From: an uncultured Acidimicrobiaceae bacterium
Lineage (GTDB): Bacteria; Actinomycetota; Acidimicrobiia; Acidimicrobiales; RAAP-2
Direction of reading: 5' to 3'
DNA length: 64,000 nt
Assembly (NCBI GenBank): GCA_963783965.1
Contig: CAWAPQ010000013.1
Location: 367,529-431,528 of the forward strand
Below are positions 22,993 to 51,948 of the stretch, one piece after another (position 1 is the first letter of the stretch; each line of letters starts with the position of its first letter). A program made the translations under genes and the position numbers. The notes below the pieces were generated by a model. The model did no database searches and was not told the origin of the DNA. It worked only from the letters and a program-made list of their open reading frames with translations.

Positions 22993-23011
22993 CCGACGAA
23001 ACGGGGACCAC

Positions 23012-27199: not shown

Positions 27200-28449
27200 C
27201 GGTGACGCTGGGGGGGCCCGGACGGGTGCTCGAACCCGAGGCGGTTCGCTCGTTCGTGCGCGCCGAGGTCGCCGCACTGGACCTGGCCGGTCGCTCCCTG
27301 TGCGTGGTCATCCCCGACGCCACCCGGAACTGCCCGCTGCCCCTGCTCCTCCGGGCCATCGAAGAGGGAGCCGGCGGACGGACGAGTGCACTGACCGCGG
27401 TGATCGCCCTCGGCACCCACGCACCCATGTCCGACGACGCCGTGGCCGCGTTGGTCGGGCCGGCCTCCCTTCACGTCCGCAACCATGCGTGGTGGGAGGA
27501 CGACACCTTCACGCACGTCGGCTCGTTGTCGGCGGAGCTGGTCGTGGAGCTCTCGGGCGGCCGGCTTCATGACCCGATCGACGTCCGGCTCAACCGGCTC
27601 GTTGTCGAGAGCGACGTGACGCTGCTCGTCGGCCCGGTGTTGCCCCATGAGGTCATCGGCTTCTCGGGAGGGAACAAGTACCTGTTCCCCGGGCTGTCCG
27701 GCCAGGAGATGATCGACGTGACGCACTGGCTCGGGGCGCTGATCACGAGCAGCGAGATCATCGGCACGCGTGGGGTCACGCCCGTGCGGGCACTGGTCGA
27801 GGCGGCGGCCGAGCTGGTGCCCGGCGAGCGCCACGCCCTGTGCGTCGTCGTGGACCACGACAGTGGCGGCCTGGAGTCGTTGTCCTTCGGGGACCCGTTC
27901 GGCGCCTGGGCGGCCGCGGCCGAGGTGGCGGCGGAGACGCACGTCATCTATCTCGACCGCCCGGTGCGGAGGGTGCTCTCCCTCGTCCCCACGCGGTACC
28001 CGGACCTGTGGACGGGGGCCAAGGGCTTCTACAAGGTGGAGCCGGTGGTGGCCGACGCGGGCGAGGTCGTCCTGTACGCGCCGCACATCACCGAGATCGC
28101 GGCGATGCACCCGCGCCTCATGGAGATCGGCTACCACTGCCGCGACTTCTTCCTGGCCCAGTGGGACCGCTACCGCGACGTCCCGCTGGGCGAGCTGGCG
28201 CACTCGACCCATCTGTTCGGCGCCGGGACGTACGACCCCGTGGGCGGGGAGCGCCAACGGGTCCGGGTCACCCTGGCCACCGGCATCCCCGAGGACGTCG
28301 TGCGGCGGGCGAACCTCGGCTACCTCGCGCCCGACGCCGTCGAGCCCTCAGCATGGGCTTCCGATCCCCATGCGCTGGTCGTGCCCGATGCCGGCGAGGT
28401 GCTCTACCGGCTCCGGACAACCCCACCGGCGGGCTACTCGCCGGGATAG
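27196..28449 (+). CDS. LarA-like (lactate-racemase family, DUF2088) putative nickel-pincer-dependent 2-hydroxyacid racemase/epimerase
   Basis: 417 aa. VVIPDATRNCPLP, IALGTHAP, PHEVIGFSGGNKYLFPG and IDVTHW align with the LarA catalytic/cofactor motifs. GTG 27196 overlaps the upstream stop (GTGA). Confidence 0.8.
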   Translation: MTVTLGGPGRVLEPEAVRSFVRAEVAALDLAGRSLCVVIPDATRNCPLPLLLRAIEEGAGGRTSALTAVIALGTHAPMSDDAVAALVGPASLHVRNHAWWEDDTFTHVGSLSAELVVELSGGRLHDPIDVRLNRLVVESDVTLLVGPVLPHEVIGFSGGNKYLFPGLSGQEMIDVTHWLGALITSSEIIGTRGVTPVRALVEAAAELVPGERHALCVVVDHDSGGLESLSFGDPFGAWAAAAEVAAETHVIYLDRPVRRVLSLVPTRYPDLWTGAKGFYKVEPVVADAGEVVLYAPHITEIAAMHPRLMEIGYHCRDFFLAQWDRYRDVPLGELAHSTHLFGAGTYDPVGGERQRVRVTLATGIPEDVVRRANLGYLAPDAVEPSAWASDPHALVVPDAGEVLYRLRTTPPAGYSPG

Positions 28450-29405
28450 ACGACGCCGAGCTCGGCCCGGATGGCATCGAGGGTCGTGGCCAGGGCGATG
28501 GACTCGTCCAAGGGGACCACACTGCTCTCGGTCCGGCCTTCGGCGAGGCAGCGATGCACCTCGTCGATCTCGAAACGGAGCCCGTTGCCTTCGTACGAGG
28601 CGTCGATCCGCTCGACTCCGGCCGCGCTCGAGACGGTGAGGGCGTTCGGACAGTGCATCATTGCCGGGAGATCGATGACGCCATCGGTCCCCGCGATCCG
28701 GGCGGTGCAGGGCATGGCGACCCGCAAGGCGGCCTTGACCACACCCAACCGGTCCTCCGTGTGGTGCAGGAGCGCGGTGACCACCTCGTCGACACCCGTC
28801 TCGCCCACCACCCCGTCGGCGACGACGCGCTCGATCGGCCCCAGGACCAGCGTGCAGAGCTGCACGGGGTAGATCCCGAGGTCGAGCAGCGCCCCTCCGC
28901 CCAGCTCACGAGCGAAGTGCCGGTGATCGGGATCCACCGGCCGGCGGAACCCGAAGTCCGCCTCCACGAGGAGGGGCTCACCGATGCGACCCTCGCCGAG
29001 AACATCGACGAGTGCGCGGTAGGCGGGAAGGAACCTGCTCCAGATGGCCTCCATGAGGAAGAGTCCCCGGCTGCGGGCCTCCTCCGCCATGCGTGCCCCC
29101 TGGCGGGCGTTGAGTGCGAACGGCTTCTCGCACAGGACGTGCTTCCCGGCCTGCAGGAGGGTGATGGTGTCGACCTCGTGACGCGAGTGCGGGGTCGCGA
29201 CGTAGACGACATCCACGTCGGGGTCGCCGGCGAGCGCGTCGTAGTCGCCGTACCGGGTCGGGATGTCGAACCTGTCGCCGAACGCGTCGGCCCGCTCGGC
29301 CGAGCGCGAGGCCACGGCCGTGATGGTGCCCCCCTCGGCCCACTGCATCGCCTCGGCGAAGCCCGCGGCGATGATGCCCGGCCCGATCACGCCCCAGCGG
29401 ATCAC
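28434..29405 (-). CDS. Gfo/Idh/MocA-family NAD(P)-dependent oxidoreductase (dimeric dihydrodiol / sugar 1-dehydrogenase-like)
   Basis: VIRWGVIGPGIIAAGFAEAM..HVLCEKPFALN.. from GTG 29405. The rest of the 866-aa track ORF is spurious. Overlaps the LarA-like 3' end by 16 nt (convergent). Confidence 0.85.
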   Translation of the reverse strand: MIRWGVIGPGIIAAGFAEAMQWAEGGTITAVASRSAERADAFGDRFDIPTRYGDYDALAGDPDVDVVYVATPHSRHEVDTITLLQAGKHVLCEKPFALNARQGARMAEEARSRGLFLMEAIWSRFLPAYRALVDVLGEGRIGEPLLVEADFGFRRPVDPDHRHFARELGGGALLDLGIYPVQLCTLVLGPIERVVADGVVGETGVDEVVTALLHHTEDRLGVVKAALRVAMPCTARIAGTDGVIDLPAMMHCPNALTVSSAAGVERIDASYEGNGLRFEIDEVHRCLAEGRTESSVVPLDESIALATTLDAIRAELGVVYPGE

Positions 29406-29477
29406 CGCGGGACCCCTTCGCCGACGGCCATCCGGCCTCGCATCGGGCCCGTTCCGGAGGCAGGAGACTTCACTGTC

Positions 29478-29491
29478 TGATAACGCTATCA
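29478..29491. promoter_or_regulatory. LacI-type operator candidate TGATAACGCTATCA in the oxidoreductase/xylA divergent region
   Basis: Near-palindrome (6 of 7 arm pairs) with a CG centre. 12/14 identical to TGTTATCGCTATCA at 40120..40133. Confidence 0.5.
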
Positions 29492-29570
29492 TCGGCCACT
29501 GCCTGGGACAACGCGGCGGTGACGGTGGCGGCTCGACGGGGTGCCGGGTGGAAGCCACGACAGGAGGACC

Positions 29571-30728
29571 ATGACCGATCTCTTTGTGCCGCGACCCGAA
29601 GACCACTTCACTTTCGGGCTCTGGACCGTGGGCAACCCCGGCCGTGACCCGTTCGGCGCCGAGGTGCGCGCGCCACTCGACCCGGTCGATTCCGTGCACC
29701 GTCTCGCCGAGCTGGGCGCCTACGGCGTCAGCTTCCACGACAACGATCTCGTCCCGTACGGCTCGTCGCCCAACGAGCGTGACGAGATACTGAAGCGCTT
29801 TCGCCGCGCGCTCGACGCCACCGGGATGCACGTTCCCATGGTGACGACGAACCTCTTCTGGCGGCCGGTGTTCAAAGAGGGCGCGTTCACGGCCAACGAC
29901 CCGCTCGTGCGCCGACTGGCCGTCAAGAAAGCCTGTGAAGCGACCGAGCTCGGTGCCGAGCTCGGTGCCGAGATCTTCGTCCTCTGGGGTGGCCGGGAGG
30001 GAATGGAGGCCGAAGCCGCCAAGGACGTCCGGCTGGCCCTGGACCGCTACAAGGAAGCGATCGATCTCGTGTGCGATCACATTGCGGCGCGGGGCCTTCG
30101 CCTGCGTCTTGCGCTGGAGCCCAAGCCGAACGAGCCCCGCGGCGACATCCTCCTCCCGACCGTGGGCCATGCGCTCGCCTTCATCGGGTCGCTCGAGCAT
30201 CCGGACATGGTCGGGCTGAACCCGGAGTTCGCGCACGAGACCATGAGCGGCCTCTCCTTCTCGCAGGCCGTGGCGCAGGCGTTGTGGCAGGGCAAGCTCT
30301 TCCACATCGATCTCAACGCGCAGCGGATCGGCAAGTTCGACCAGGACTTCCGCTTCGGTTCCGAGGGGATCCGCGATGCCTTCTACGTCGTCAAGCTGCT
30401 GGAGGACGCCCGGTGGGACGGCATGCGGCACTTCGACGCCCACCCGTACCGCACCGAGGATGCCGACGGCGTATGGGACTTCGCCCGCGGCTGCATGCGC
30501 ACGTACCTGATATTGGCGGACAAGGCCCGGCGCTTCCACGAAGACGCCGACATCCGGGAGGCCCTCCGGGTGGCAAAGGTGGCCCAGCTGGGTGAACCGA
30601 CGGCCCCGGCCGGCGGCCTCGACGAGCTGCTGGCCGCGCAGTACGACGAGGACGCGCTGGCCGCGCAGGGCTACGGCCACGAACAGCTGGACCAGCTCGT
30701 CACCGAGTTGCTGCTCGGGGCCCGGTAG
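29571..30728 (+). CDS. xylA: Xylose isomerase (class I, actinobacterial type)
   Basis: [52 protein letters not shown] lies upstream of ATG 29571. Confidence 0.95.
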
Positions 30729-32149
30729 TGCCCCTGGTGGTCGGGGTCGACTCCTCGACGTCGGCCTGCAAGGTCCAGGTACGCGACGCCGACAGCGGTG
30801 CAGTGGTGGCGTCGGGTCGGGCGACCCACCCTTCGACGTCGCCTCCCCGTAGCGAGCAGCACCCCTCGCAGTGGGAGGCCGCATTCCACGCGGCAAGCGC
30901 TCAGGCGGCCCTCCCGGCCCGGGAGACGCCGTCGGCCATTGCCATCGCCGCACAACAACACGGCCTGGTCGTCCTCGACGCAGACGGCGAGGTGCTCCGT
31001 CCCGCCAAGCTCTGGAACGACACGGAGTCCGCACCCGATACCGCCACGCTCCTCTCCGCCCTGCCGGGCGGCCCGGCCGGCTGGGCCACTGCCTGCGGCA
31101 GCGTGCCGCTCCCGAGCTTCACCATCACCAAGCTGCACTGGTTGCGCCGCTGTGAGCCGGAGGCCTTCACGCGTGTTGCCTCCGTCCTGCTGCCGCACGA
31201 CTGGCTCACGTTCCGCCTCACCGGCCGTCCCACCACCGACCGGGGCGACGCCTCGGGCACCGGGTACTGGTCGCCGCGCGGGGACCGCTACCGGGACGAC
31301 CTCCTCCGTCTCGTCAGCAGCGACATCGACTGGGACTCGGTGCTCCCCGAGGTCCTCGCTCCGGACGCCATCGCCGGGGAGTGGCGGGGCGCCGGGATCA
31401 CCGTCGCTCCCGGGACGGGCGACAACATGGCGGCCGCCCTCGGCCTGGGCCTCCGCCCCGGGGACCTCGCCCTGAGCCTCGGGACGAGCGGCACCGCCTT
31501 CACGGTCGCCGACGAGCCGACCGAGGACCCCACGGGAACGGTCGCCGGCTTCGCCGATGCGACGGGGCGCTTCCTGCCGCTCGTCTGCACCATGAACGCC
31601 ACCAAGGTGACCGGCGCCGTGGCCCGTCTGCTCGGCGTCGATCAGGCGCAGCTCGACGCGCTGGCGCTCGAGGCGCCGCCCGGTGCGGGCGGGCTGGTGC
31701 TCGTCCCGCACCTCGACGGCGAACGCACTCCGAACCGGCCCGGTGCGACCGGGACAGTGACGGGACTGCGCACCGACGTGACCCGGGCCCAACTGGCCCG
31801 GGCGGCGATTGAAGGTGTGGTGTGCAACCTGCTGGCCGGAGCCGACGCGCTCGGGCCGGCGAGCCCGCAAGGCACGGTGTTCCTGGTCGGCGGCGCGGCC
31901 CGGAGCCCGGCCTACCGGCGCATCGTCGCGGACCTCACGGGGCGACCCGTTCGGGTCCCGGCCGACGACGAGCTCGTGGCGGCCGGCGCAGCGGTCCAGG
32001 CCGCCGCGGTGCACCACGGTTGCGACTTCGCGCAGGTGGCGGCGGCGTGGGGACTCGGGCGCGGCGAGACCGTCGAGCCGGACGACTCGGTCGACCGCGT
32101 CGCCGTCCGCGCTTCCTACGCCGCCGCGGCGGAGGCGGCCGTGCCATGA
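30728..32149 (+). CDS. xylB: Xylulokinase (FGGY family)
   Basis: VVGVDSSTSACKVQV..PGTGDNMAAALG..GGAARSPAY. GTG 30728 overlaps the xylA stop. Confidence 0.9.
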   Translation: MPLVVGVDSSTSACKVQVRDADSGAVVASGRATHPSTSPPRSEQHPSQWEAAFHAASAQAALPARETPSAIAIAAQQHGLVVLDADGEVLRPAKLWNDTESAPDTATLLSALPGGPAGWATACGSVPLPSFTITKLHWLRRCEPEAFTRVASVLLPHDWLTFRLTGRPTTDRGDASGTGYWSPRGDRYRDDLLRLVSSDIDWDSVLPEVLAPDAIAGEWRGAGITVAPGTGDNMAAALGLGLRPGDLALSLGTSGTAFTVADEPTEDPTGTVAGFADATGRFLPLVCTMNATKVTGAVARLLGVDQAQLDALALEAPPGAGGLVLVPHLDGERTPNRPGATGTVTGLRTDVTRAQLARAAIEGVVCNLLAGADALGPASPQGTVFLVGGAARSPAYRRIVADLTGRPVRVPADDELVAAGAAVQAAAVHHGCDFAQVAAAWGLGRGETVEPDDSVDRVAVRASYAAAAEAAVP

Positions 32150-33624
32150 CCTACCGCAACCCCGTCATTCCGGGCTTCCATCCCGACCCGAGCGTGTGCC
32201 GGGTCGGAGACGAGTACTTCTTGGTGACCTCCTCGTTCATCCTCTCCCCCGGCGTCCCTGTCTTCCGGTCCTCGAACCTGGTGGAGTGGACGCAGATCGG
32301 CAACGTGCTCGAACGCCCATCGCACCTCGACCTCGCGTCGACCTGGAACTGGTCGTCGCTCGGCATCTACGCCCCGACCATCCGCTACCACGACGGCACG
32401 TTCTTCATGATCACCACCAACGTCGGCTCCGCGGGCGTGCGGACGTTTCTCGTCATGAGCGAAGACCCCGCCGGACCGTGGTCGGATCCCGTCCCGGTGC
32501 CGGTCCCCGGCATCGACCCCGACCTGGCCTGGGACCACGACGGGAACTGCTGGGTGCACTTTTCGGGCCTCGGCGGCATCGCCCGCTCCCGCATCAATGT
32601 CAGCACCGGCGCCCTGGTGAGCACGCCGGACCTCACGTGGTCGGGCACCGGGCTGCAGTACCCCGAGTCACCACACCTCTACGAGCGCGACGGACTCTGG
32701 TACCTCCTCATCGCCGAGGGAGGGACGTACGCCGGGCACAGCGTCTCGGTCGCCCGCGGCCCGTCCCCGCTCGGGCCCTGGGAAGGATCGCCGAGCAATC
32801 CGATCCTCTCGCACCGCAGCACCGACTCGCCGATTCAGAACACCGGCCACGGCGACCTGGTGGAGGCCATCGACCGATCGTGGTGGATGGTCTTCTTGGG
32901 TGTGCGACCCAGGGGCATCGGACCCACCTTCCACACGCTCGGCCGCGAGACCTTCCTCGTGCCGGTGCAGTGGCACGACGGTTGGCCGGTACCGGCCGAT
33001 CCCGCGTTGGAGATGACCGCCACGACTCCCGGACTGGTCGAGAGCGTGCAGGCTCAAGGGCGGGAGGACTTCGACGCGCCCACCCTGGGGCCCATCTGGG
33101 TCGGCCTCCGCCGATCCCCCGCGATGATGAGCTCGCTCACGGACCGCCCCGGCTGGCTCGTCCTGCACGGTGGCGAGGCCACGCTTGACGACCCGGAGCC
33201 GACGTTCGTCGGGCGCCGGCAACTCCATCATCACTGCCGGGTCAGCGCGCGCGTCGACGCCGCACCGGCCACGGAGGCCGGGGTAGCCGTCTGGTTGGAC
33301 GGAGGTGCGCACTACGAGGTCGCCGTCCGGGGCGACCGCGTCGTCGCCCTGGCCCGCATCGGATCGGTCCATTCCGTCGTCGGATCGGCACCGCGTCCGG
33401 TGGGCCCCGTGGTGCTGAACCTCGAAACAGGTCCTGACCCGTACGGACCCGACTCGGTCTCACTCGGATTCGACGACGGCTCGGGCACCACACGGACGTT
33501 GGCTCGCCTGGACGGCCGCTACCTCTCCACAGAGGTGACGGGAGGGTTTCTCGGCCGCGTGATCGGGATGTACGCCGTCGGCGGGAAAGCCGCCTTCGAA
33601 TGGTTCGACTACGGAGAGGCGTGA
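32146..33624 (+). CDS. GH43 beta-xylosidase/alpha-L-arabinofuranosidase
   Basis: MTYRNPVIPGFHPDPSVCRVGDEYFLVTSSF..YAPTIRYHDGTFFM..ESPHLYERDGLWYLLIAEGG. ATGA overlap with xylB. Confidence 0.9.
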   Translation: MTYRNPVIPGFHPDPSVCRVGDEYFLVTSSFILSPGVPVFRSSNLVEWTQIGNVLERPSHLDLASTWNWSSLGIYAPTIRYHDGTFFMITTNVGSAGVRTFLVMSEDPAGPWSDPVPVPVPGIDPDLAWDHDGNCWVHFSGLGGIARSRINVSTGALVSTPDLTWSGTGLQYPESPHLYERDGLWYLLIAEGGTYAGHSVSVARGPSPLGPWEGSPSNPILSHRSTDSPIQNTGHGDLVEAIDRSWWMVFLGVRPRGIGPTFHTLGRETFLVPVQWHDGWPVPADPALEMTATTPGLVESVQAQGREDFDAPTLGPIWVGLRRSPAMMSSLTDRPGWLVLHGGEATLDDPEPTFVGRRQLHHHCRVSARVDAAPATEAGVAVWLDGGAHYEVAVRGDRVVALARIGSVHSVVGSAPRPVGPVVLNLETGPDPYGPDSVSLGFDDGSGTTRTLARLDGRYLSTEVTGGFLGRVIGMYAVGGKAAFEWFDYGEA

Positions 33625-34631
33625 CGGGCGACGCGCCGAACCGCCGTCCCGTCATGGCTGACGTCGCCGCCCGGGCCGGCGTGTCCGTCATGACCGTGTC
33701 CCGCGTGCTGAACGGGTTCGCCGGTGTGACCGAGGAGACCCGACTGCGGGTCGAGGAGGCCGTTGCGTCGCTCGGGTACCACGCCAACACCGCGGCACGG
33801 GTGCTGGCCGGCGGCCGCTCACGCACCCTGGGGGTGATGGCCGTCGAGACCGAGCAGTTCGGCCCGTCCCACATGCTCTTCGCCATTGAGGCGGCGGCCC
33901 GCCGGGCCGGCCACGCCGTGACCTTCGTGACGCTGAACCGAAACGGCAGTGACATGGAGGCGACGCTCGACCAGCTGCGGGCCTCGCACGTGCAGGGGGT
34001 CATTGTGGTCGCACCCGTTCGGCGTGTCGTGGAGGCGGCGACCCGGCTTGAGGGCGACATGCCCCTCGTCGTCGTCGGGGGTGACCCCGCCATCGGCGCG
34101 CCCACCGTCACCATCGACCAGGTGGGCGGCGCCCGCATCGCCACGCGCCATCTCCTCGACCTCGGGCACGGCACGGTCCACCACGTGGCCGGCCCGCAGA
34201 CCTGGATCGATGCCACCGCCCGCCTGCGGGGCTGGTCGGATGCGCTGCGCGAGTACCCCGCTCCCGGAGGCCGCTCGGTGGCCGGGGACTGGAGTGCACG
34301 CCGCGGCTACGAGGCCGGCCTGCGCCTGGCCGGGGAGGCGGACGTCACGGCCGTCTTCGCCGCCAACGACCAGACGGCGCTCGGGGTGATCAGAGGCTTG
34401 CGCGATGCCGGTCGCCGGGTGCCCGAGCACGTGAGCGTGATCGGATTCGACGACACGCCGGAGTCGGGGTACTACCTGCCGCCCCTGACGACGGTCCGCC
34501 AGGATTTCGGGGAGGTCGGGCGCCGCAGCGTCGAGCTCCTGTTGTCGCTCTTCGACGGCGAGCTGGTGGAGCGTCATGTCGTCGTCCCGGCGGCACTGGT
34601 TGAACGGGCCAGCACGGCGCCGCCGCGCTGA
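33621..34631 (+). CDS. LacI-family transcriptional regulator (last gene of the xyl operon)
   Basis: VMADVAARAGVSVMTVSRVLNGFAGVTEETRLRVEEAVASLGYHANTAARVL. GTG 33621 overlaps the GH43 stop (GTGA). Confidence 0.9.
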   Translation: MTGDAPNRRPVMADVAARAGVSVMTVSRVLNGFAGVTEETRLRVEEAVASLGYHANTAARVLAGGRSRTLGVMAVETEQFGPSHMLFAIEAAARRAGHAVTFVTLNRNGSDMEATLDQLRASHVQGVIVVAPVRRVVEAATRLEGDMPLVVVGGDPAIGAPTVTIDQVGGARIATRHLLDLGHGTVHHVAGPQTWIDATARLRGWSDALREYPAPGGRSVAGDWSARRGYEAGLRLAGEADVTAVFAANDQTALGVIRGLRDAGRRVPEHVSVIGFDDTPESGYYLPPLTTVRQDFGEVGRRSVELLLSLFDGELVERHVVVPAALVERASTAPPR

Positions 34632-35738
34632 TCAACGGATCAGCGCATCCACGTCGTCCAACGCCCCGGGCTCACAGGCGACCACGACGGTGCCCCCGCA
34701 GCCGCCCCCACTGGAGCGGGCGCCGTAGACGCCGGGCCGGGACAACGCCTCCTCGACGATCGCCGTGGCCGCCGGATGGCCGAGCCCCATGGCGTCATAC
34801 CCGTCCTGGCTCGCGGCCATCAGGGGCCCGAGCCGCGCCGGCGACGGCACCTCGCCGGCCAACGCGGCCAGCGCGTCCACCGCACGCACGTGCTCCTCGA
34901 CGCCGAACGACGCCGCCGCACGGACTGGGTACGTCTCGTCCGGTCGTACGACCGTCACGTCGTCGTCGGTCGTGCCCCAGCGATTGAGGAAGGAGGCTCC
35001 ATCCATCGTCGCCGGGAGGCCCTCCACAGCGGCGCGCGGCAGCTCGCTCACCCATGACCAGGTGCGGCCGGCCGCTTCCTCGAGCACGCGCTTGCCCATG
35101 AAGGCCGCCGCCCGTGCCCGCGCGTACGGCGCGCCGTCCACGTTGTGCGAGATTCCCGTCGGCCACCCGACGACCTCGAGCCCGGGCGGCAGGGGGACCG
35201 GGTCCGCCACCGAAGCCGGCCGGCACAGTATCGGCAGCACTGCTCCGGGTGTCCCGAGCGCCACCGCCACCTGATCCATGATGCCGCAAGGCGCGCCGAC
35301 GACATGGTTCTCGGCCTCCTGACACAGCGCGGCGACACGGAGAGGGTCCGCGCCCGCCGCGCCGAGCGCGCGCGCCGTGGCCACCTCGAGCGCCGCGCTT
35401 GATGCCACGCCCACCGATGCCGGGAGATCCGACGTGACGTCGAGCCGCACGCGGGGCGGCGCAATCACACCGTGGCGCAGGAGCACAAGGGCGACCCCGA
35501 CGACGTAGTGCGTCCACCGGGGACACGCGGCCAGCTGCCGGCGGACATCCTCGTAGGCGAGCCCGGCCAGGTCGACGAGCTCGGCCAACGAGAAGCTGAC
35601 CGGGCCCACGACGAAGGCGTCGTCGGGAGTCGCGACCACCTCGGTCCCCTGCCGGGTCGGCATCTCGAGCACGAGCGCCCCCGAGTAGTCCGCCACGCCA
35701 CCGAGAAGGTCGAGACGCCCTGACGCGCTACCCCGCAC
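34632..35738 (-). CDS. GHMP-family anomeric sugar kinase (arabinokinase-like rather than classical GalK)
   Basis: VRGSASGRLDLLGGVADYSGALVLEMPT.. in place of the GalK GEHxDY signature. GHMP motif SDLPASVGVASSAALEVA, C-terminal SSGGGCGG. GTG 35738 overlaps the upstream gene by 11 nt. Confidence 0.8.
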   Translation of the reverse strand: MRGSASGRLDLLGGVADYSGALVLEMPTRQGTEVVATPDDAFVVGPVSFSLAELVDLAGLAYEDVRRQLAACPRWTHYVVGVALVLLRHGVIAPPRVRLDVTSDLPASVGVASSAALEVATARALGAAGADPLRVAALCQEAENHVVGAPCGIMDQVAVALGTPGAVLPILCRPASVADPVPLPPGLEVVGWPTGISHNVDGAPYARARAAAFMGKRVLEEAAGRTWSWVSELPRAAVEGLPATMDGASFLNRWGTTDDDVTVVRPDETYPVRAAASFGVEEHVRAVDALAALAGEVPSPARLGPLMAASQDGYDAMGLGHPAATAIVEEALSRPGVYGARSSGGGCGGTVVVACEPGALDDVDALIR

Positions 35739-36651
35739 CCAGCCCGTCCACCAACTCCGCCAACACCGGACCGATGCGCTCAGCCAACGCCCGGTTCGCG
35801 TAGCCGACCCAGGCCACCGGCGAGACGTTGTCCAGCGGGACCGCAAGCGGACCACCCCAGGGGTCGGTGACCACGCCCCCGACCTCTTCGAGGAGCAAGG
35901 CGGTGCACACGTCGTAGGGATGGCAGGCCAGACCGTCGTTCGTGACCAACGGGCGCAGATCGGCGACGAAACGGTCGCGCCCTGTGATCAGCTCGTGCAG
36001 TTGGCCCCCGGTCGAGAGGTACTCGTCGTCGAAGACGTGCTGCTCGCCGAGCCGCTCGAACAGCTGCGCCTCCAGTCCGGCGAGGGTCGTCTTGCCGGGC
36101 AGGAAGAATTTCGCCAGCCCAGCGAAGCTGTGGGCGAGATCCGTCGCCGTGGACGGCCGCACACCCAGCGCCACGCGGCCGCCGCGAGCGAGGTCGACCC
36201 GTTCGCCGTGCAGGCCCCCGCCGCGGGTGGCGCTCAGCTGATCGGCCGCCCCCTGCTTGACAGTGGGAAGTTCGGTCATGGCCGCCGCGACGACGTCCGC
36301 CAGCGTGCCGCCCGGCGGTGCCACTGCGGCCAGACACCAGGCCGGCCGCTTGTCGTACATCAGACCGCGCGTGCCGTCGATGGTGTCGACGATGACCGTC
36401 CAGGCCGCCTCGCCGCCGACGAGCACGGGGTGGTCGAGTCCCTCCGAGACCACCATGACATCGCGCCAGTACTGCTCGAACCAGCGCAGCAGTGCGTCGT
36501 CGGCGACCCGGTCGATGGCGTAGATCGTGTCGGCCACGCTCTCCCCCGACACCGCTGCCATGTCCATGCCCCGGGACGCCACGACCAGGTCGCGCACGTG
36601 CTCGCCCAGCGCGCAGAGCAGGCGACGGGCTTCTTCAGGCGATGGCGGCAC
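35728..36651 (-). CDS. Inositol-monophosphatase/FBPase-fold family phosphatase-like protein
   Basis: WTVIVDTIDGTRGLMY (DPIDGT-type motif) and HPYDVCTALLLEEVGGVVTD (WD-x-AAG-type motif). GTG 36651 overlaps the GalT-like 3' end by 17 nt. Confidence 0.75.
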   Translation of the reverse strand: MPPSPEEARRLLCALGEHVRDLVVASRGMDMAAVSGESVADTIYAIDRVADDALLRWFEQYWRDVMVVSEGLDHPVLVGGEAAWTVIVDTIDGTRGLMYDKRPAWCLAAVAPPGGTLADVVAAAMTELPTVKQGAADQLSATRGGGLHGERVDLARGGRVALGVRPSTATDLAHSFAGLAKFFLPGKTTLAGLEAQLFERLGEQHVFDDEYLSTGGQLHELITGRDRFVADLRPLVTNDGLACHPYDVCTALLLEEVGGVVTDPWGGPLAVPLDNVSPVAWVGYANRALAERIGPVLAELVDGLGAG

Positions 36652-37618
36652 GAAGCTCCTCGGCCCTCTCGTCGGGATCCGACTCGTTGGTCATGGAGCC
36701 GCCGCCGACCTCGGGCCCGGCCAGGTACTTGCGCAGGCCGGGAGCCCGGAGGGGCGGGTGGAGCTCCAGATGGAAGGGGTAGTGCGGATGGTCGCCCACC
36801 GGGGCCTGGTGCACGGCCAGGACGTAGGGCAGCCGGAAGCCCCAGAGGGCGTCGTAACGCCGCACCACATCGCGCAGGACGAGTGCGAGTGAACGGCACT
36901 GGTCCTCGTCGAGGTCGACAAGTGAGGTCAGGGGACGCCGGGGCAGGATGAGCACCTCGTAGGCGTACTGGGCGAACCAGGGCACGCAGGCGAAGAAGTG
37001 GTCACCCTCGCTGACGATCCGAGGGCCGTCCGCCTCCCGGTCGATCACGTCGGCGAGCAGCGAGCGCCCGGTCCGCTCGTGGTGCGCGCCGGCCACCGCC
37101 GCCTCCCGCGCCATGGTGGCGTAGACCATCGATCCGGCGTAGATCTGGCAGTGCGGGTGGGGATTGGACGTGCCGACCATGGCGCCACGATTCTCGAAGA
37201 TGTACACGTGCGCCACACCGTCGAGTGTCTGGAGCACCTCCGTCCGGCTGCGCCAGGTGGCGACGATGGCCGCCATCTCGTCGTCGGTCAGCTCGGCCAG
37301 GGACCGGTCGGGATCGTGGTGGTAGCAGACGACCTCGGCCGTGCCGAGCGCGCGGCGCGTCCGGTAGACGTCGTCCCCGTGCGCTGGTTCCGGTGCGTCG
37401 GCCGAAAAGACGGGGAGGTCGTTCGTGAACCAGTACACGCCGCGATAGTCGGGGTTGGTCCCGTGGAGGCGCGTGCCGAGGGGCGCCAGGGCGTTGTGGG
37501 CGGGAACAGGCGGCTCCTCCGGCGCGACGATCTCGCCGATCCAGGGGCGGGCCTCCCGGTGGGAGGTGAAGAGGATCCACTCGCCGCGAAACGGGTGCCA
37601 GCGCAACTCCCAGGTCAT
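36635..37618 (-). CDS. galT: Galactose-1-phosphate uridylyltransferase-like (HIT superfamily, GalT class I)
   Basis: ELRWHPFRGEWILFTSHREARPW..NPDYRGVYWFTNDLPVF..IFENRGAMVGTSNPHPHCQIY (HPHxQ active site). GGAG lies 7 nt upstream of ATG 37618. Confidence 0.85.
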   Translation of the reverse strand: MTWELRWHPFRGEWILFTSHREARPWIGEIVAPEEPPVPAHNALAPLGTRLHGTNPDYRGVYWFTNDLPVFSADAPEPAHGDDVYRTRRALGTAEVVCYHHDPDRSLAELTDDEMAAIVATWRSRTEVLQTLDGVAHVYIFENRGAMVGTSNPHPHCQIYAGSMVYATMAREAAVAGAHHERTGRSLLADVIDREADGPRIVSEGDHFFACVPWFAQYAYEVLILPRRPLTSLVDLDEDQCRSLALVLRDVVRRYDALWGFRLPYVLAVHQAPVGDHPHYPFHLELHPPLRAPGLRKYLAGPEVGGGSMTNESDPDERAEELRAAIA

Positions 37619-37636
37619 GGCCGACTCCGGACCCGT

Positions 37637-40093
37637 TCAGCCCCGGGCATCGATCTCGACCCGTTGTGATGGGCAGCCCTCCGTGGTGGCGCTGAGGGTG
37701 ATCCGCCCCTCGCCGGCGGGGCGGACGATGGCGAGGGCGCGGCCACCGAACGTCGTGCACCCCGTCCCGGTGAAACTCTCCTCGGACGCCGGGTTCGCAC
37801 TGCCCAGTCCCTGCAGGACGCCGGGGCCGTCGACCTGCACCTCTATCCACCGGTCGCGCGCCACGTGGAGCACTCCGTGGTCGTCAACGAGGCAGAGGGT
37901 CACGTAGGCCAGGTCCTCGGGATCGGCCGCAATGACGGCGCGATCGGCGGTCGCGTCGAGCCGCACCTCCCCGGTGGCGGAGGCGAGCGCGGTGCGGCCG
38001 ATCTCTGTCCCGTCTCGCCAGGCCACGGCCTCCAACCGGCCCGTTTCGTATGTCGTCTCGAATGTCGACCGGTAGCGCTGCGACGCCCCGCTCGCCTGTC
38101 GGCCGACCGGGCGGCCGTTCAGCAGCAACTCGACCTCGTCGGCGTCGGCGTAGACCTCCACGGTCACCGGCGCGCCCTCGTGCCCGACCCAGCTCCAGCT
38201 CGACACGACGTCGCTCCAGGACCACGGCGTGCCCGACGCCGCCTCACCGTGGTGCACCGGCGACCGCACGGCCAGGTAGGGGTCAGACCGCAACCCGAAC
38301 ACGATCTCGCGGTAATACGACTGGGGACGGCGGTAGCCGGTGATGTCGATGTCCCCGCACCAGGCGGTCCGGTACGGGTACTCGCCGTGGAACGACTGCA
38401 TGCCCTGCGCCGGATCGGGCGTGCCGTAGACCGTGCGCCCGATCCCGGCCTCACCGAGGTAGTCCCAGCCGGTCCAGGTGAAGTCGCCGATGACGTGGGG
38501 GTACCTGCGCACCGCGGCCCAACCTCTGTCGATGGCCGGGGGATGGGTCTCGCTGCCGACGATCACCCGGTTCGGGTAGAGGTCCCCGTCGGTGGCGAAC
38601 CGGGTCTCCATGTAGTTGTAGCCGACCACATCGAGGTACGAAGCAGTCTGGGCCGAGTTCCTCGCCACGACGGGCGCACGCATGAGGTCGTTGAGCCGGT
38701 CGGCGATCTGGGTCATCGCCGTGTTCACGCCCGTCCCGGCATCCGGCTCCTCGGTTGCGTTGTCGCGTCCCTCGGCGAGCCGGGCGAAGAGCTCGGACCC
38801 GCCGACCAGCAGCCCGCTGATGGCCTCGGTCACGAAGCGCGAGGCGTCGAGCGAGCGGATCTTCTCGGCCAGCGCACGTCCGACACGGGCACCCATCGGT
38901 GTCCCCGCCTCTGGGATCTCGTTGCCGATGCTGTAGAGGATGACGCTCGGGTGGTTGATGTCCTTGCGGACCATGGCCTCCACGTCCGCCTCCCACCAGT
39001 CGGGGAATCGCAGCGCGTAGTCGTGCTCGCTCTTTGGTTGTGTCCACATGTCGAAGGTCTCGTCCATGACGAGCACGCCGAGCCGGTCGCAGGCACGGAG
39101 CATGGGTTTGCTGAGGGGATTGTGGGCGCTCCGGATGGCGTTGAACCCGGCTTCCTTGAGCAACTCGACACGGCGCTCCTCTGCACGCCCGACGGTGGCC
39201 GCACCGAGCGGGCCGTTGTCGTGATGGACGCACGCCCCGCGGAGGAGCACCGTCTCGCCATTGATGCGGAGGCCTCGCTCCGGGTCCACGTTCAGCGACC
39301 GAATCCCGAACGTCGTCGATTCCTCGTCGAGGACGTGATCGCCGTCCAGCAAGGACGCCCGACAGACGTAGAGGTACGGATGTTCTGGACCCCACCGGTG
39401 CGGACGTCGCACACGCAACCGCTGCCGCGCGGTGAGGACGTCGCCTGGCACGGTCGTGATCGGCGCCTCGGCTTCGGCCACCACGTTGCCCTCTGCGTCG
39501 ACGATCTCGAATCGCAGGTCGGCGTTCGACATCCCGGTCGACTGGTTCCGCACCTCTGCGCTCACGGCCACCGACGCCAGGTCGTCGTCGATCTCGGGCG
39601 TGAGCAGCTGCAGACCGCCCGGCACCAGGTGGACCCGTCCGCCCTGGAGCAGCCAGACGCTGCGGTAGAGGCCGCCCCCCGAGTACCAGCGGCTGTCGTC
39701 GTGGGCGCAGGCCTCGACCTTGACCTCATTGGGCTGGCCGGAGCGCAGCAGGTGGTCGATCTGCACGGTGAAGTCCGAGTAGCCCCCCGGTCGGTGGGCG
39801 ACCAAGGCGTCGTTGACCCGGACCCGTGCGTCGCGGTAGACGCCCTCGAATTCCAGGACGACGGCGCTCCCGGGCTCGTCGGTCGACAGCTCGAACGACT
39901 TCTTGTACTCCCAGTTCCCGCTCGGGAAGTAGGCCGTCGCCGCGTGCCCGGACGGCGAGCGTTCGGTGCCGAGCATGGCGTCGTGGGGCAGGGTCACCTG
40001 TGCCGGCGCCGAGCCCGCTCCGGCGATCAGCTCGGCAAAGGAGTTCGCCTTGGCTCCGACCGTCCAGCCGTCATTGAATGGGGTACGACGCAT
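37637..40093 (-). CDS. GH2 glycoside hydrolase (beta-galactosidase-like, with C-terminal DUF4982-type domains)
   Basis: 818 aa. FNDGWTV, GGLYRSVWL, NAIRSAHNP, ILYSIGNEIPE (acid/base region). Confidence 0.9.
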   Translation of the reverse strand: MRRTPFNDGWTVGAKANSFAELIAGAGSAPAQVTLPHDAMLGTERSPSGHAATAYFPSGNWEYKKSFELSTDEPGSAVVLEFEGVYRDARVRVNDALVAHRPGGYSDFTVQIDHLLRSGQPNEVKVEACAHDDSRWYSGGGLYRSVWLLQGGRVHLVPGGLQLLTPEIDDDLASVAVSAEVRNQSTGMSNADLRFEIVDAEGNVVAEAEAPITTVPGDVLTARQRLRVRRPHRWGPEHPYLYVCRASLLDGDHVLDEESTTFGIRSLNVDPERGLRINGETVLLRGACVHHDNGPLGAATVGRAEERRVELLKEAGFNAIRSAHNPLSKPMLRACDRLGVLVMDETFDMWTQPKSEHDYALRFPDWWEADVEAMVRKDINHPSVILYSIGNEIPEAGTPMGARVGRALAEKIRSLDASRFVTEAISGLLVGGSELFARLAEGRDNATEEPDAGTGVNTAMTQIADRLNDLMRAPVVARNSAQTASYLDVVGYNYMETRFATDGDLYPNRVIVGSETHPPAIDRGWAAVRRYPHVIGDFTWTGWDYLGEAGIGRTVYGTPDPAQGMQSFHGEYPYRTAWCGDIDITGYRRPQSYYREIVFGLRSDPYLAVRSPVHHGEAASGTPWSWSDVVSSWSWVGHEGAPVTVEVYADADEVELLLNGRPVGRQASGASQRYRSTFETTYETGRLEAVAWRDGTEIGRTALASATGEVRLDATADRAVIAADPEDLAYVTLCLVDDHGVLHVARDRWIEVQVDGPGVLQGLGSANPASEESFTGTGCTTFGGRALAIVRPAGEGRITLSATTEGCPSQRVEIDARG

Positions 40094-40119
40094 GGACCGG
40101 CATCCTACGCCACCAGGGA

Positions 40120-40133
40120 TGTTATCGCTATCA
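40120..40133. promoter_or_regulatory. LacI-type operator candidate TGTTATCGCTATCA, 27 nt upstream of the GH2 start
   Basis: 12/14 identical, in the same orientation, to the site at 29478..29491. AT-rich spot in the GH2/esterase divergent region. Confidence 0.45.
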
Positions 40134-40260
40134 TGCGCCGACCGACCCGGGGCGCCGAGCCTGCCCGCGCAGGCCGCCGGAGTCGGGGCGCAGTGTTACC
40201 TTGACCGCAACAGCGACCCCGCCCGCACCGGGCGGCGGCGCTGCGGGACAGGAGGTGCGC

Positions 40261-40980
40261 ATGGCGACCTATGTGCTCGTGCACGGCGGCGGCCACGGGG
40301 GCTGGTGCTATCAGCGGGTCGCCCGACTCCTGCAGGCAAAGGGCCACGTGGTCTACGCGCCCACCATGACGGGATTGGGCGAACGGGCGCACCTGCTGAA
40401 CGCCGAGGTCGACCTGGACCGACACATCGAGGACATGGCCGCCGTGTTGCAGTTCGAGGACCTGCGCGACGTCATTCTGGTTGGACACAGCTACGGCGGG
40501 ATGGTCATCACGGGCACAGCCGACCGCGTGCCGGACCGGATCGGCCGTCTGGTGTTCCTCGACGCCGCCAACCCCGTCAACGGCCAGTCACTTGTCGACG
40601 TGGCGGGTCCCGTCATCGGCGCCGTCCGCCCATTCGGCGAGACCGTCGATGGGATGGAGCTCGTGCTGCTCCCGGCGCCCGATGCCGGTCTGCTCTACGG
40701 CGTCACCGACCCGGCAGACCTGGCCTGGATGGCCGAGCGCCTGACGGCGCACCCCTGGAAGTGCTTCGAACAATCGTTGGATCTGACCAACGAGGCCGCT
40801 CTCTGGGCCATTCCCCAGTTCCACATCGTGTGCACGTCGACGCTGGCGACCAGGGACCCTGGCCTCATTGCGACCGCCCGAGCCGAGGGCCGGCTCTGGG
40901 ACATCGACACCGGCCATGACCTCATGATCACCGAACCGGAGAAGGTCGCGGACGCATTACTGCAGGTCGCAGTGGCCTGA
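40261..40980 (+). CDS. Alpha/beta-hydrolase (SABP2/methylesterase-like)
   Basis: MATYVLVHGGGHGGWCYQRV..VILVGHSYGGMV (GxSxG nucleophile elbow)..TGHDLMITEP. Confidence 0.8.
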   Translation: MATYVLVHGGGHGGWCYQRVARLLQAKGHVVYAPTMTGLGERAHLLNAEVDLDRHIEDMAAVLQFEDLRDVILVGHSYGGMVITGTADRVPDRIGRLVFLDAANPVNGQSLVDVAGPVIGAVRPFGETVDGMELVLLPAPDAGLLYGVTDPADLAWMAERLTAHPWKCFEQSLDLTNEAALWAIPQFHIVCTSTLATRDPGLIATARAEGRLWDIDTGHDLMITEPEKVADALLQVAVA

Positions 40981-46306: not shown

Positions 46307-46356
46307 GGGCGCACGCTAGACGTTCATCCGCTCGCCGGACGGGGGCTCCGGTTTGA

Positions 46357-46370
46357 TGCAAAGCTTTGCA
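46357..46370. promoter_or_regulatory. 14-bp perfect palindrome TGCAAAGCTTTGCA in the MarR/GH1 divergent region (LacI-type operator candidate)
   Basis: Identical core to 21054..21067. Lies 64 nt upstream of the GH1 ATG. Confidence 0.5.
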
Positions 46371-46433
46371 GAGGCCAGGGCGGGCGTGTCACACTGCGGC
46401 CTTCCGGTCAGGCTTGCGACAGGAAGGACCGCG

Positions 46434-47669
46434 ATGGCACGGTTTCCACATGGCTTTCTCTGGGGCGCGGCCACAGCCGGACACCAGGTCGAAGGCGGCA
46501 ACGTCAACGCCGACATGTGGCCGATGGAATGGGCCCAGAACTCGACCTTCAACGAGCCGTCCGGCGACACGTGCGATCACTACCACCGCTATCCCGAGGA
46601 CATCGCGGCCCTCGCCGAGCTCGGACTCACCGCGTACCGCTTCTCCCTCGAGTGGTCCCGGATCGAACCCGAGCCGGGCTTCTATTCGCGGGCCGCGCTC
46701 GACCACTACGGGAGGATGATCGAGAGCTGCCTGCACAACGGCATCACGCCGGTGGTGACCTACAACCACTTCACGGTCCCGCGCTGGATGGCAGGCCGGG
46801 GCGGATGGAGTGCAGATGATGCACCGGCGCGCTTCGCGGACTATGCGGCGCGAGCGACGCAGCACTTCGGCGATCTCCTGTCGTGGGCCTGCACGCTGAA
46901 CGAGCCCAACCTCATGGCCATGATGCGGAGCACCGGCGTCCTGGCCATGGGCGCCGGAGACCGCTCACCGCGCCCCGAGCCTTTCGAATCGGAACGCGGT
47001 GGTGTCGGCGGCTTCGACCCGCGGCACTACCGGATGGGGATTGTGGCGGCCGACCTCGAGCGCATGGCGACGGCCCATCGACAGGCGGTGCAGGCGATCA
47101 AGGCGACGACGGGGGCCATCAAGACGGGGTGGACCCTGGCGCTCGTGGACTTCCAGCCGGCGGAGGGTGGCGAGGAACGGTGGCAGGAGGCACGGCGGGT
47201 GGCCCAGACCGACTGGCTCGCCGTCTCGGCCGACGACGACTTCGTCGGCGTGCAGACGTACTCCCGCGCCCGCATCGGACCGGAGGGGCAGCTGTCCGTG
47301 CCGGACGGGGCCGACACCATGCAGACCGGCTGGGAGGTCTACCCCGAGGCACTGGGACACACGGTCCGCCTCGCCGCGGAACACGCCGGCGTGCCCGTGC
47401 TCGTGACCGAGAACGGGATGGCGACCGACGACGACGCGAGCCGGCTGGCCTACATCCGTGCCGCGCTCGAGGGACTGGCCCGGGCCGTTGCTGACGGGGT
47501 CGACGTGCGCGGCTACCTGCACTGGACGCTGCTCGACAACTTCGAATGGAACGCCGGCTACTCCAAGACGTTCGGCCTCATCGCCGTCGACCGCGAGACC
47601 TTTGCCCGTTCGGTCAAACCCTCCGCCCGCTGGCTCGGTCAGGTGGCCCAGCGCAACGGCCTGGACTGA
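46434..47669 (+). CDS. GH1 beta-glucosidase
   Basis: MARFPHGFLWGAATAGHQVEG..YRFSLEWSRIEP..TLNEPN (acid/base)..LVTENGMAT (nucleophile). AGGAAGGA lies upstream of ATG 46434. Confidence 0.9.
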   Translation: MARFPHGFLWGAATAGHQVEGGNVNADMWPMEWAQNSTFNEPSGDTCDHYHRYPEDIAALAELGLTAYRFSLEWSRIEPEPGFYSRAALDHYGRMIESCLHNGITPVVTYNHFTVPRWMAGRGGWSADDAPARFADYAARATQHFGDLLSWACTLNEPNLMAMMRSTGVLAMGAGDRSPRPEPFESERGGVGGFDPRHYRMGIVAADLERMATAHRQAVQAIKATTGAIKTGWTLALVDFQPAEGGEERWQEARRVAQTDWLAVSADDDFVGVQTYSRARIGPEGQLSVPDGADTMQTGWEVYPEALGHTVRLAAEHAGVPVLVTENGMATDDDASRLAYIRAALEGLARAVADGVDVRGYLHWTLLDNFEWNAGYSKTFGLIAVDRETFARSVKPSARWLGQVAQRNGLD

Positions 47670-48884: not shown

Positions 48885-48970
48885 CGTCCCCCCTTTTCCG
48901 CACCGCCCTCAGGCGTGCACAAGGGTCATGCTAACGATTGCACGAGGCGAGAACCAGGGGATGGTGCCCG

Positions 48971-51544: not shown

Positions 51545-51675
51545 GTGGGCAGCTCCATGATCCCTTTTGTGCAACATTACAACTTCGAACATCTGGCGTC
51601 GATTGGCTCTCGTGTCCGCAGATGCGGCCGGCTTTACGGTCTTCTTATGGATTCCGAATGCGGGAGCGCGCCTTT

Positions 51676-51816
51676 TGCAACGGTGCTGTAACGACCGGCT
51701 GTCAATGTCGTTGGTAGCGATTCGGCCCCGCGTTCCCCCCCTCACCCCCCGGGGCGGGGTCGCATCGCTCGGACCCACCAGGTGGCACCGTTGCAGCCCC
51801 GCTCCGGCGGGGCTGC
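51676..51816 (+). ncRNA. Candidate structured RNA element (nested helices, C-rich loop, terminal GC hairpin); strand and function uncertain
   Basis: P1 pairs 51676..51686 with 51785..51795 (11 bp perfect). An inner hairpin pairs 51690..51695 with 51707..51712. A 16-bp stem pairs 51716..51731 with 51754..51769 (one mismatch, one G-U on the plus strand) and has the loop GUUCCCCCCCUCACCCCCCGGG. A 10-bp hairpin spans 51793..51816. Confidence 0.25.
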
Positions 51817-51948
51817 GGCGCGCCACGGGCCCGCCGTACCTCACAATCCTGTCATTCCGTCCCGCCTGCGGATGGTGCTCCCCGACGCCCGATTTCGGCC
51901 CGGGCAAAGGTGTCTAACATCGCCGTCAGCGAATCAAAAGGAGGGGCG

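Follow-up and report, generated by a model that had tools for sequence, protein, structure and literature searches.

Which sugar is served by an operon that is built like the Leloir genes of galactose metabolism and departs from them in its kinase, in its transferase and in an inserted phosphatase? The question is raised by four minus-strand genes in a 64-kb stretch of DNA from an uncultured Acidimicrobiaceae bacterium (contig CAWAPQ010000013.1; this whole stretch is called the window below), which has a G+C content of about 70% and whose closest relatives are metagenome-assembled genomes (MAGs) of Acidimicrobiia. The first gene encodes a GH2 glycosidase (37637-40093; 818 aa, ATG start) and is followed by genes for a class I GalT-like uridylyltransferase of the hexose/pentose-1-phosphate type (36635-37618; 327 aa, ATG start), a phosphatase of the inositol monophosphatase/fructose-1,6-bisphosphatase (IMPase/FBPase) fold (35728-36651; 307 aa, GTG start at 36651) and an arabinokinase-like GHMP kinase of the GalK fold (34632-35738; 368 aa, GTG start at 35738). 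The last three are referred to here as the module. As set out below, the kinase and the transferase probably form a Leloir-type pair directed at L-arabinose and not at galactose, a reading with moderate support.

An earlier note, made from the sequence alone, had described four minus-strand genes joined by an 18-nt gap and by overlaps of 17 and 11 nt, and the open reading frame (ORF) listing and junction reads bore this out in full. The TGA stop codon of the GH2 gene is followed by an 18-nt spacer containing CGGAG; galT and the phosphatase gene overlap by 17 nt, with GAGGAG preceding the GTG start; and the phosphatase and kinase genes overlap by 11 nt. Because of this short gap and these overlaps, with Shine-Dalgarno-like sequences found at the junctions, the four genes constitute one translationally coupled operon. 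The choice of the GTG start of the kinase agrees with homologue lengths of 366-369 aa, and the G+C content at third codon positions lies between 0.87 and 0.91 for all four ORFs. A promoter and terminator scan of 29300-40400 returned no signal above chance, including none internal to the operon.

The kinase carries the GHMP N and C domains in Pfam searches, and its AlphaFold2 (AF2) model, with a predicted local distance difference test (pLDDT) score of 92, matched human and Pyrococcus GalK in Foldseek at a template-modelling (TM) score of 0.75. The GalK/GHMP fold, the catalytic Arg and Asp and the P-loop are all present, and alignment with human GALK1 located equivalents of R37, D46, D186 and Y236. 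The E43-H44 dyad of GALK1 is replaced by G-V or G-I: the galactokinase signature G-R-x-N-[LI]-I-G-E-H-x-D-Y reads GRLDLLGGVADYSG in this protein, with E-H changed to G-V. The earlier observation that GEHxDY is missing was correct, and a motif of the GG[VI]ADYSG type, GRLDLLGGVADYSGALVLEMP, stands in its place; this motif was present in 111 of 120 close homologues and in all 120 AbGHMP-type homologues. The other residues that we take, from GalK structures, to contact the sugar are kept; a fragment-screening paper on GALK1 does not list the sugar-binding residues. All galactokinase equivalog cut-offs were missed: the best model, TIGR00131, gave 88.1 bits against a cut-off of 226.65, the other galactokinase models also stayed below theirs, and PF10509 gave 16 bits (cut-off 23). 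Motif and profile scores thus support the view that the kinase is not a canonical GalK, and we propose that it is an L-arabinose 1-kinase.

Its best solved relative is an acidobacterial protein with a crystal structure deposited as AbGHMP (PDB 9ulx, E 9e-56), whereas GalK followed at 1e-24. AbGHMP (9ulx/9uly) is identical to P0121, the 'GHMP kinase' of an Acidobacteria MAG (L038, 8001-9473), where its gene lies within a GH127-GalT-kinase cluster. The existence of these two entries shows that the acidobacterial kinase is under study, and part of what we describe may be known beyond the open literature. In the automatic annotation of the Joint Genome Institute (JGI), many homologues of the kinase are labelled 'L-arabinokinase' and others 'galactokinase'.

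The GalT-like protein contains both half-domains (PF01087 and PF02744), matches E. coli GalT (1hxq) at E 2.7e-58 and keeps the catalytic His-Pro-His, with SNPHPHCQIYA aligned to SNPHPHGQIWA of the E. coli enzyme. It scored 208 bits against TIGR00209 (cut-off 102.1), and 255 bits against the stricter PRK11720, below the cut-off of 448. The E. coli loop K-F-x-V-G-Y-E...Q (K311-Q323), which on our understanding of the E. coli structures contacts the sugar, is rebuilt to KYLAGPEVGGGSM in the C-terminal part of the window GalT. A loop of the form KYLAGPE[IV]GGG[SN][MF] was common, whatever the lineage, to every examined GalT whose gene adjoins that of the module kinase or phosphatase. The structural zinc site of the E. 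coli enzyme (Cys52, Cys55, His115 and His164) is not preserved: CxxC is missing from the window GalT and from all Acidimicrobiia orthologues (L001-L037), and is kept in acidobacterial and other module-associated GalTs.

The third protein had been described in the earlier note as having the IMPase fold and both metal-binding motifs, and Pfam, motif reads and alignments agreed with this. It scored 38.1 bits against PF00459 (cut-off 27), with the metal motifs VDTIDGT and YDVCTALLLEEVGG plus E70. Alignments of 50 and 44 sequences gave D47, E70, D89, D92, G93, E127, P129, Y246 and D247 as family invariants; the metal ligands D89, D92 and D247 are unchanged across the family, in the motifs D89-x-I-D92-G-T and Y-D247. 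To judge from these residues, the protein is very probably an active metal-dependent enzyme. Its AF2 model (pLDDT 91.9) has the alpha-beta-alpha-beta-alpha fold of sugar phosphatases and matched FBPase I, the archaeal IMPase AF2372 and SuhB in Foldseek with a probability of 1.0, TM scores of 0.64-0.73 and 15-20% identity. Fructose-1,6-bisphosphatases head the structural matches and fit no better than the IMPase does.

The protein therefore resembles the IMPase/FBPase superfamily (SuhB, CysQ, HisN, class I and IV FBPases) in its fold, with TM scores of about 0.7, in its DPxDGT-like and WD/YD metal motifs and in its catalytic Glu. It differs in passing no NCBIfam model: the best match was 36 bits against a cut-off of 264, and the characterised subfamilies (SuhB/IMPase, CysQ, HisN and FBPase I/IV) do not include it. 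A phmmer search of PDB sequences gave no match at E<0.1. The family has invariant motifs of its own (TELP, DQY[IL]S.GGQ, DRFVADLRP and CHPYD) and comprises 842 representatives at 50% identity.

Two proteins, P0256 (767 aa) and P0294 (809 aa), are clean single-chain fusions of this phosphatase, at the N terminus, to an arabinokinase-type GHMP kinase with the motif GRLD..GG..DYSGSL, at the C terminus; P0294 comes from a low-G+C organism, so that a further lineage has the fusion. Three other candidate fusions (P0385, P0246 and P0277) were discarded as frameshift artefacts with garbled Arg/Pro-rich stretches. Frameshifts were found in many loci from long-read MAGs (L021, L027 and L031-L036), where they split genes or yield false fusions. 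Among the neighbours of the phosphatase gene, the only recurring ones with a coherent function were GalK-family kinases (11 loci) and GalT (9 loci). The idea that the family is specific to the module was rejected, as the gene stands alone in three long-contig loci and in most of 80 metagenome loci. In L089 (4742-6978) and L101, a GalT-like gene lies beside the IMPase-like gene and no kinase adjoins, so the phosphatase can also pair with the transferase alone; the genes that come next in L089 look sulfatase-like and GDP-mannose-dehydratase-like from their translations.

The GH2 enzyme has a complete domain set in Pfam (GH2 N, Ig and TIM domains, DUF4982 and C5), has no signal peptide and belongs to a beta-galactosidase-like clade. 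Its best equivalog models were GalB (487 bits) and GalA (445 bits), both with a cut-off of 900. The nearest PDB entries were 7rsk and 6b6l (1e-143, unnamed GH2), followed by beta-galactosidases. Beta-galactosidase and alpha-L-arabinopyranosidase are the candidate activities.

Conservation of the block was examined in a one-genome-per-species scan, which returned 37 loci, almost all from Acidimicrobiia. The GalT-IMPase-kinase order was kept in 36 of them, with GH2 upstream in 31; the four-gene block proposed earlier thus withstood the check, and because of this retention among species representatives the arrangement lies far beyond chance. Within 8 kb on either side of the 37 loci, we found xylA in 24, xylB in 27 and a LacI-family gene in 23.

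Outside this class, the orthologues of the module proteins in Acidobacteriota (44/40/38% identity) occur in clusters with other glycosidases: GH127-GalT-kinase (L038); GH51-GalT-IMPase-kinase-galE followed by a CUT2 sugar ATP-binding cassette (ABC) transporter, with xylB nearby (L040); rhamnogalacturonan I lyase-GH51-GH51-GalT-kinase...GH39 (L126); and, in a further cluster, three GH51 genes followed by GalT-kinase-GH39; in L125 the kinase is an orphan. Because the orthologous GalT and kinase genes, in one case with the IMPase gene, sit directly behind GH51 or GH127 L-arabinofuranosidases in this phylum, L-arabinose is favoured as the substrate. The earlier suggestion of a sugar other than galactose, possibly L-arabinose, gains from this context and from the non-GalK kinase, and is checked by the likeness of the GH2 enzyme to beta-galactosidases. 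More triads came from metagenome contigs that differ in composition (L100, L108, L109, L113, L114, L116 and L122). The flanks of those in L100, L109 and L113 had no carbohydrate theme as judged by translations, their neighbours including sulfatase-like, pyrroloquinoline quinone (PQQ)-type and peptidase-like genes.

The module is also tied to xylose catabolism. In the window, it faces a tightly overlapping plus-strand operon that converges on the kinase gene and consists of xylA for an actinobacterial-type xylose isomerase (29541-30728; TIGR02631, 570 bits, cut-off 447), xylB for a xylulokinase (30728-32149; TIGR01312, 419 bits, cut-off 380), a GH43 gene of the beta-xylosidase/alpha-L-arabinofuranosidase type with a GH43_C2 domain (32146-33624; its ATG overlaps the xylB stop codon as ATGA) and, as the last gene, a LacI-family repressor (33600-34631; Pfam LacI and Peripla_BP_3; 274 bits against NF007075, below the 340-bit cut-off). 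The stop codons of lacI and the kinase gene abut at 34631/34632 with zero intergenic bases, where relatives have 10-100 nt, and no terminator-like structure was seen between these convergent genes.

Upstream of each operon lies a LacI-family operator-like palindrome: TGTTATCGCTATCA at 40120-40133, 27 nt before the GH2 start codon, and a second copy, TGATAACGCTATCA, at 29478-29491, 50 nt before xylA. The LacI-type pattern TGnnAnCGnTnnCA matched the window four times against 0.63 expected, and the two sites at xylA and GH2 are near-identical. In about 24 related loci the GH2-side site occupies an unchanged position, and about 14-15 retain the xylA-side site; in L013 and L028, which lack GH2, the operator-like site lies directly upstream of galT. 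These paired predicted operators, with positions kept in roughly 15-26 related genomes, point to a single regulon under the LacI gene at 33600-34631.

Other arrangements preserve the tie to xylose. L018 has the order xylA, ROK regulator, xylB, GH2, GalT, IMPase, kinase, and L020 has xylB-GH2-GH3-GalT-IMPase-kinase on one strand, followed by a bona fide galE; both are more distant relatives without a LacI gene, and in both xylB precedes the module on a shared strand. The best NCBIfam match of the L020 GH3 protein, encoded directly before galT, is a beta-xylosidase/alpha-L-arabinosidase model (720 bits, below its 1050-bit cut-off). In both phyla, the FGGY kinase encoded near the module is a xylulokinase and not a ribulokinase. 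The best explanation of these observations is that the four-gene operon and xylA-xylB-GH43-lacI share one LacI-controlled regulon, which serves the use of pentoses from imported hemicellulose fragments.

No gene for GalE, aldose 1-epimerase, AraA, AraB or AraD was detected by Pfam among the scanned predicted genes of the 64-kb window, and tblastn with a GalE query matched neither the window nor any of the Acidimicrobiia loci apart from L020. The statements that galE and mutarotase are absent are right for this window; that on galE does not extend to all relatives, since galE adjoins the module in two other lineages (L040 and L020 alone among 126 loci, that is, in two phyla). In this respect the window differs from a Leloir operon, in which galE and/or galM is encoded with galK and galT.

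How could such a gene set work? The reading of the earlier note, from sugar to sugar 1-phosphate to uridine diphosphate (UDP)-sugar, is the natural one for these genes. L-Arabinopyranose is galactose without C6, and UDP-L-arabinose is the 4-epimer of UDP-xylose. In the route that we propose, GH2 and GH43 would free L-arabinose and xylose, and the GalK-fold kinase would phosphorylate L-arabinopyranose at C1. The GalT-like transferase would convert the resulting L-arabinose 1-phosphate and UDP-xylose to UDP-L-arabinose and xylose 1-phosphate, with UDP-glucose able to prime the cycle, and a GalE-type 4-epimerase, which would be encoded elsewhere in the genome and lies beside the module in other lineages, would remake UDP-xylose from UDP-L-arabinose. 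The IMPase-fold phosphatase would then release D-xylose from xylose 1-phosphate, and XylA and XylB would convert it to xylulose 5-phosphate.

A phosphatase would be needed because no mutase can turn xylopyranose 1-phosphate into an ester that the cell can metabolise. Its coupling or fusion to an arabinokinase-type kinase speaks against its destroying the product of that kinase. The role in proofreading or regulation that the earlier note had offered is possible; stoichiometric hydrolysis of xylose 1-phosphate would better explain why the phosphatase is fused to kinases and why the module is tied to xylAB. The chemistry has precedents: plant ARA1 makes L-arabinopyranose 1-phosphate, some UDP-glucose 4-epimerases interconvert UDP-xylose and UDP-L-arabinopyranose, and alpha-L-arabinopyranose resembles beta-galactose (PMC5897480). 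We give the combined explanation, a Leloir-type L-arabinose module with xylose as its output, slightly less than an even chance, and we put forward the whole arabinose-to-xylose route with its xylose 1-phosphate phosphatase only tentatively.

Several observations weigh against this explanation. None of these proteins has a known enzyme activity, and the function of the solved homologue AbGHMP was not found in the full-text literature searched; the substrates of all the enzymes and the way in which flux runs are inferred, most of all what the phosphatase acts on. An epimerase gene is missing from the window and from most Acidimicrobiia loci. The GalT-like protein exceeds the galT equivalog threshold, and, because the GH2 enzyme is nearest to beta-galactosidases, this operon may handle galactose, or both sugars. 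Which residues of GalK and GalT contact C6 is presumed from crystal structures. Any arabinose pathway that belongs to an arabinoxylan regulon would be expected to be co-regulated with xylAB, and each pentose would cost two ATP by the proposed route compared with one by AraBAD.

The phosphatase step draws most of the remaining objections. The gene stands alone in an Oleiharenicola isolate, in the genome of the Chloroflexi Ca. Leptofilum and in a metagenome scaffold, as it does in the majority of the 80 sampled metagenome loci, and it is missing from some modules (L019, L038, L126 and the cluster with three GH51 genes). In Opitutae-like contigs (L061 4763-6999, L071 2233-4394, L077 and L090 4811-6984) its start overlaps by 4 nt a kinase that passes the galactokinase model and reads GNHTDY, not GEHTDY. 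With most family members alone or paired with a true galK, the assignment of the phosphatase to xylose 1-phosphate is weakened. The breadth of the family fits a general sugar-1-phosphate phosphatase and leaves room for a safety-valve role. In the Opitutae-like contigs, GalT is not adjacent and the neighbours look housekeeping-like by translations (DAHP-synthase-like, YgfZ-like and malate-dehydrogenase-like).

Some of these same facts would be accommodated by a galactose Leloir operon of the ordinary kind whose galactokinase has diverged. GH2 would then release D-galactose, the kinase would make galactose 1-phosphate and GalT would carry out the exchange with UDP-glucose, with GalE and phosphoglucomutase encoded elsewhere and the IMPase-like protein a general Leloir accessory. 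The likeness of GH2 to beta-galactosidases, the TIGR00209 score of GalT, the GalK fold and catalytic residues of the kinase and the Opitutae-like pairs all speak for it. It has to account, however, for a kinase that reaches 88 bits against a cut-off of 226 and has no conserved E-H dyad, for a rebuilt hexose-binding loop in GalT, for the link to xylA/xylB in this lineage, and for orthologous kinase/GalT pairs that lie behind GH51 and GH127 arabinofuranosidases with no beta-galactosidase; we regard it as unlikely. The HddA/GmhB/HddC type of logic, in which a C1 kinase acts on a sugar phosphate, an FBPase-like enzyme removes the distal phosphate and a transferase makes the UDP-sugar, would suit the structural matches of the phosphatase to fructose-1,6-bisphosphatases, and a set of anomeric GHMP kinase, phosphatase and nucleotidyltransferase mirrors nucleoside diphosphate (NDP)-heptose synthesis. 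The FBPase match nevertheless equals the IMPase match (TM about 0.7, 15-20% identity), GalK-type kinases use free sugars and the fold here is that of GalK, arabinopyranose offers no free primary hydroxyl to carry a second phosphate, and the context is catabolic, so that we consider this scheme very improbable.

Salvage of a sugar, possibly L-arabinose, with the phosphatase in proofreading or regulation, was the reading of the earlier note. Spelled out as a rival, it becomes the conversion of L-arabinose to UDP-L-arabinose for glycan synthesis, as in plants, with the phosphatase as a proofreading device or safety valve that clears surplus or incorrect sugar 1-phosphates and so averts sugar-phosphate toxicity. 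Fusions of kinases and phosphatases with opposed activities do exist, for example archaeal NAD kinase/NADP phosphatase, and the occurrence of the phosphatase family alone or with a galK-like kinase would fit a general sugar-1-phosphate phosphatase. Plants offer a precedent in ARA1 and a UDP-sugar-forming enzyme (PMC5897480), and a passage of PMC9306886 treats the build-up of sugar 1-phosphates as a known toxicity issue. The surroundings, however, include a repressor, transporters, xylAB and glycosidases of both the intracellular and the secreted kind. Genes for glycosyltransferases or polysaccharide synthesis were found neither near the module in the window nor directly beside it in the annotated acidobacterial clusters; the orphan kinase of L125 has a GT2-domain gene about 3 kb away. 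A phosphatase coupled or fused one to one with a kinase whose product it destroys would, moreover, run a futile cycle. The salvage claim was not supported by this comparison, in which the LacI repressor, the operator shared with xylA-xylB-GH43, the position behind xylB, the transporters and the glycosidases mark a catabolic context, and we rate it as improbable.

Returning to the L-arabinose module, we compared it with known systems. It works like the Leloir pathway (GalK, GalT, GalE and GalM) and is not a canonical member of it. The two share a GalK-fold anomeric kinase beside a class I GalT with His-Pro-His, an adjacent GalE in L040 and L020, and the same logic of kinase, UMP exchange and 4-epimerisation. 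It cannot be counted as canonical because its kinase has no GalK signature and stays below the GalK thresholds, its transferase lacks the sugar loop and the zinc site of GalT, and no galE or galM lies in the window. It differs further in the inserted IMPase-fold phosphatase, in the lack of a mutarotase, in its association with arabinofuranosidases and xylA/xylB and not with galactose genes, and in its predicted end product, which would be free xylose and not glucose 1-phosphate.

Plant ARA1 presumably has a kinase motif of the same type, GRLD..GG.ADYSG. For the arabinokinase likeness claimed earlier the evidence is indirect, from the JGI labels, which for other homologues read 'galactokinase', and from the rank of AbGHMP, not GalK, as best solved relative; the module kinase is a GHMP domain only and does not have the N-terminal, glycosyltransferase-like half of ARA1. 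Plant L-arabinose salvage, with ARA1, UDP-sugar pyrophosphorylase and UDP-xylose 4-epimerase or a bifunctional UGE, shares L-arabinose 1-phosphate, UDP-L-arabinose and a GalE-type epimerase with the proposed route (PMC5897480). By contrast, the module would use a GalT-type transferase and not a pyrophosphorylase, is catabolic and repressor-controlled, and includes a phosphatase.

Two further systems have parts in common with it. In the bifidobacterial galacto-N-biose/lacto-N-biose (GNB/LNB) pathway (NahK, GalT-like LnpC and GalE-like LnpD), a non-galactose sugar 1-phosphate is handled by genes that lie with a glycan-degrading enzyme and a transporter. GalT and GalE paralogues are likewise re-used for another sugar there, whereas its kinase is of the APH and not the GHMP type, its substrates are N-acetylhexosamines, and no phosphatase takes part, so that GlcNAc-1-phosphate stays phosphorylated. 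In plant ascorbate synthesis (the Smirnoff-Wheeler pathway), the GDP-L-galactose phosphorylase VTC2/VTC5 of the GalT/HIT superfamily is followed by VTC4, an IMPase-family L-galactose-1-phosphate phosphatase. There a GalT-superfamily enzyme releases a sugar 1-phosphate from which an IMPase-family phosphatase frees the sugar, the pairing that is proposed here. That pathway is biosynthetic and uses GDP-sugars, and VTC4 is a canonical IMPase, unlike the module phosphatase, which belongs to a distinct family. No paper on this arrangement or on a matching bacterial pathway was found in the full-text literature searched, in line with the earlier note, which had been unable to match it to a described pathway.

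The wider neighbourhood in the window is also rich in sugar-related genes. Between 21020 and 29483 lie uxaC for a glucuronate isomerase (21020-22477), a GH2 beta-glucuronidase that passes its equivalog cut-off (22715-24829), an oxidoreductase of the mannitol dehydrogenase family (25814-27199), a LarA-like protein (27202-28449) and a Gfo/Idh/MocA oxidoreductase on the minus strand, divergent from xylA (28434-29483). Together with the xyl genes and the module, this island looks like a glucuronoarabinoxylan-utilisation region without canonical arabinose genes. Across its loci, the module is flanked by pentose-type ABC transporters and glycosidases. On the other side are genes for a GH1 enzyme (46353-47669), an amidohydrolase (47697-48884) and a GH78 alpha-L-rhamnosidase (48971-51907). 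A LacI-type palindrome, TGCTAACGATTGCA, is located at 48929-48942, about 45 nt upstream of the amidohydrolase gene, and is unlike the xylA and GH2 sites in sequence. Two more proteins are encoded further along: one of 670 aa (58863-60875) with two BPD_transp_2 stretches, that is, a fused LivH/LivM-type permease, and one of 463 aa (61004-62395) with two TetR_N DNA-binding domains.

L-Arabinose is among the most abundant plant-derived pentoses, and the established routes for its use are, to our knowledge, only the isomerase (AraBAD), oxidative and fungal oxidoreductive ones. It is possible, though we would not count on it, that the module represents a previously undescribed, ATP-driven C4-epimerisation of L-arabinose to D-xylose via UDP-pentoses, which feeds XylA/XylB and takes the place of AraBAD in soil lineages that are abundant, among them Acidimicrobiia and Blastocatellia. 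If so, it would add a further solution for L-arabinose and would explain the use of arabinoxylan and pectic arabinan by widespread, poorly cultured soil phyla. It would also give a function to families that are now vaguely or wrongly labelled 'galactokinase', 'galactose-1-P uridylyltransferase' and 'inositol monophosphatase', and would improve metabolic reconstructions from MAGs; an arabinose 1-kinase and a pentose-1-phosphate uridylyltransferase would be of practical use for the synthesis of UDP-pentoses. The module should interest specialists in carbohydrate metabolism and soil microbiology. Should the phosphatase step prove wrong, a large, uncharacterised IMPase-fold family that is repeatedly paired with or fused to anomeric sugar kinases would still merit study.

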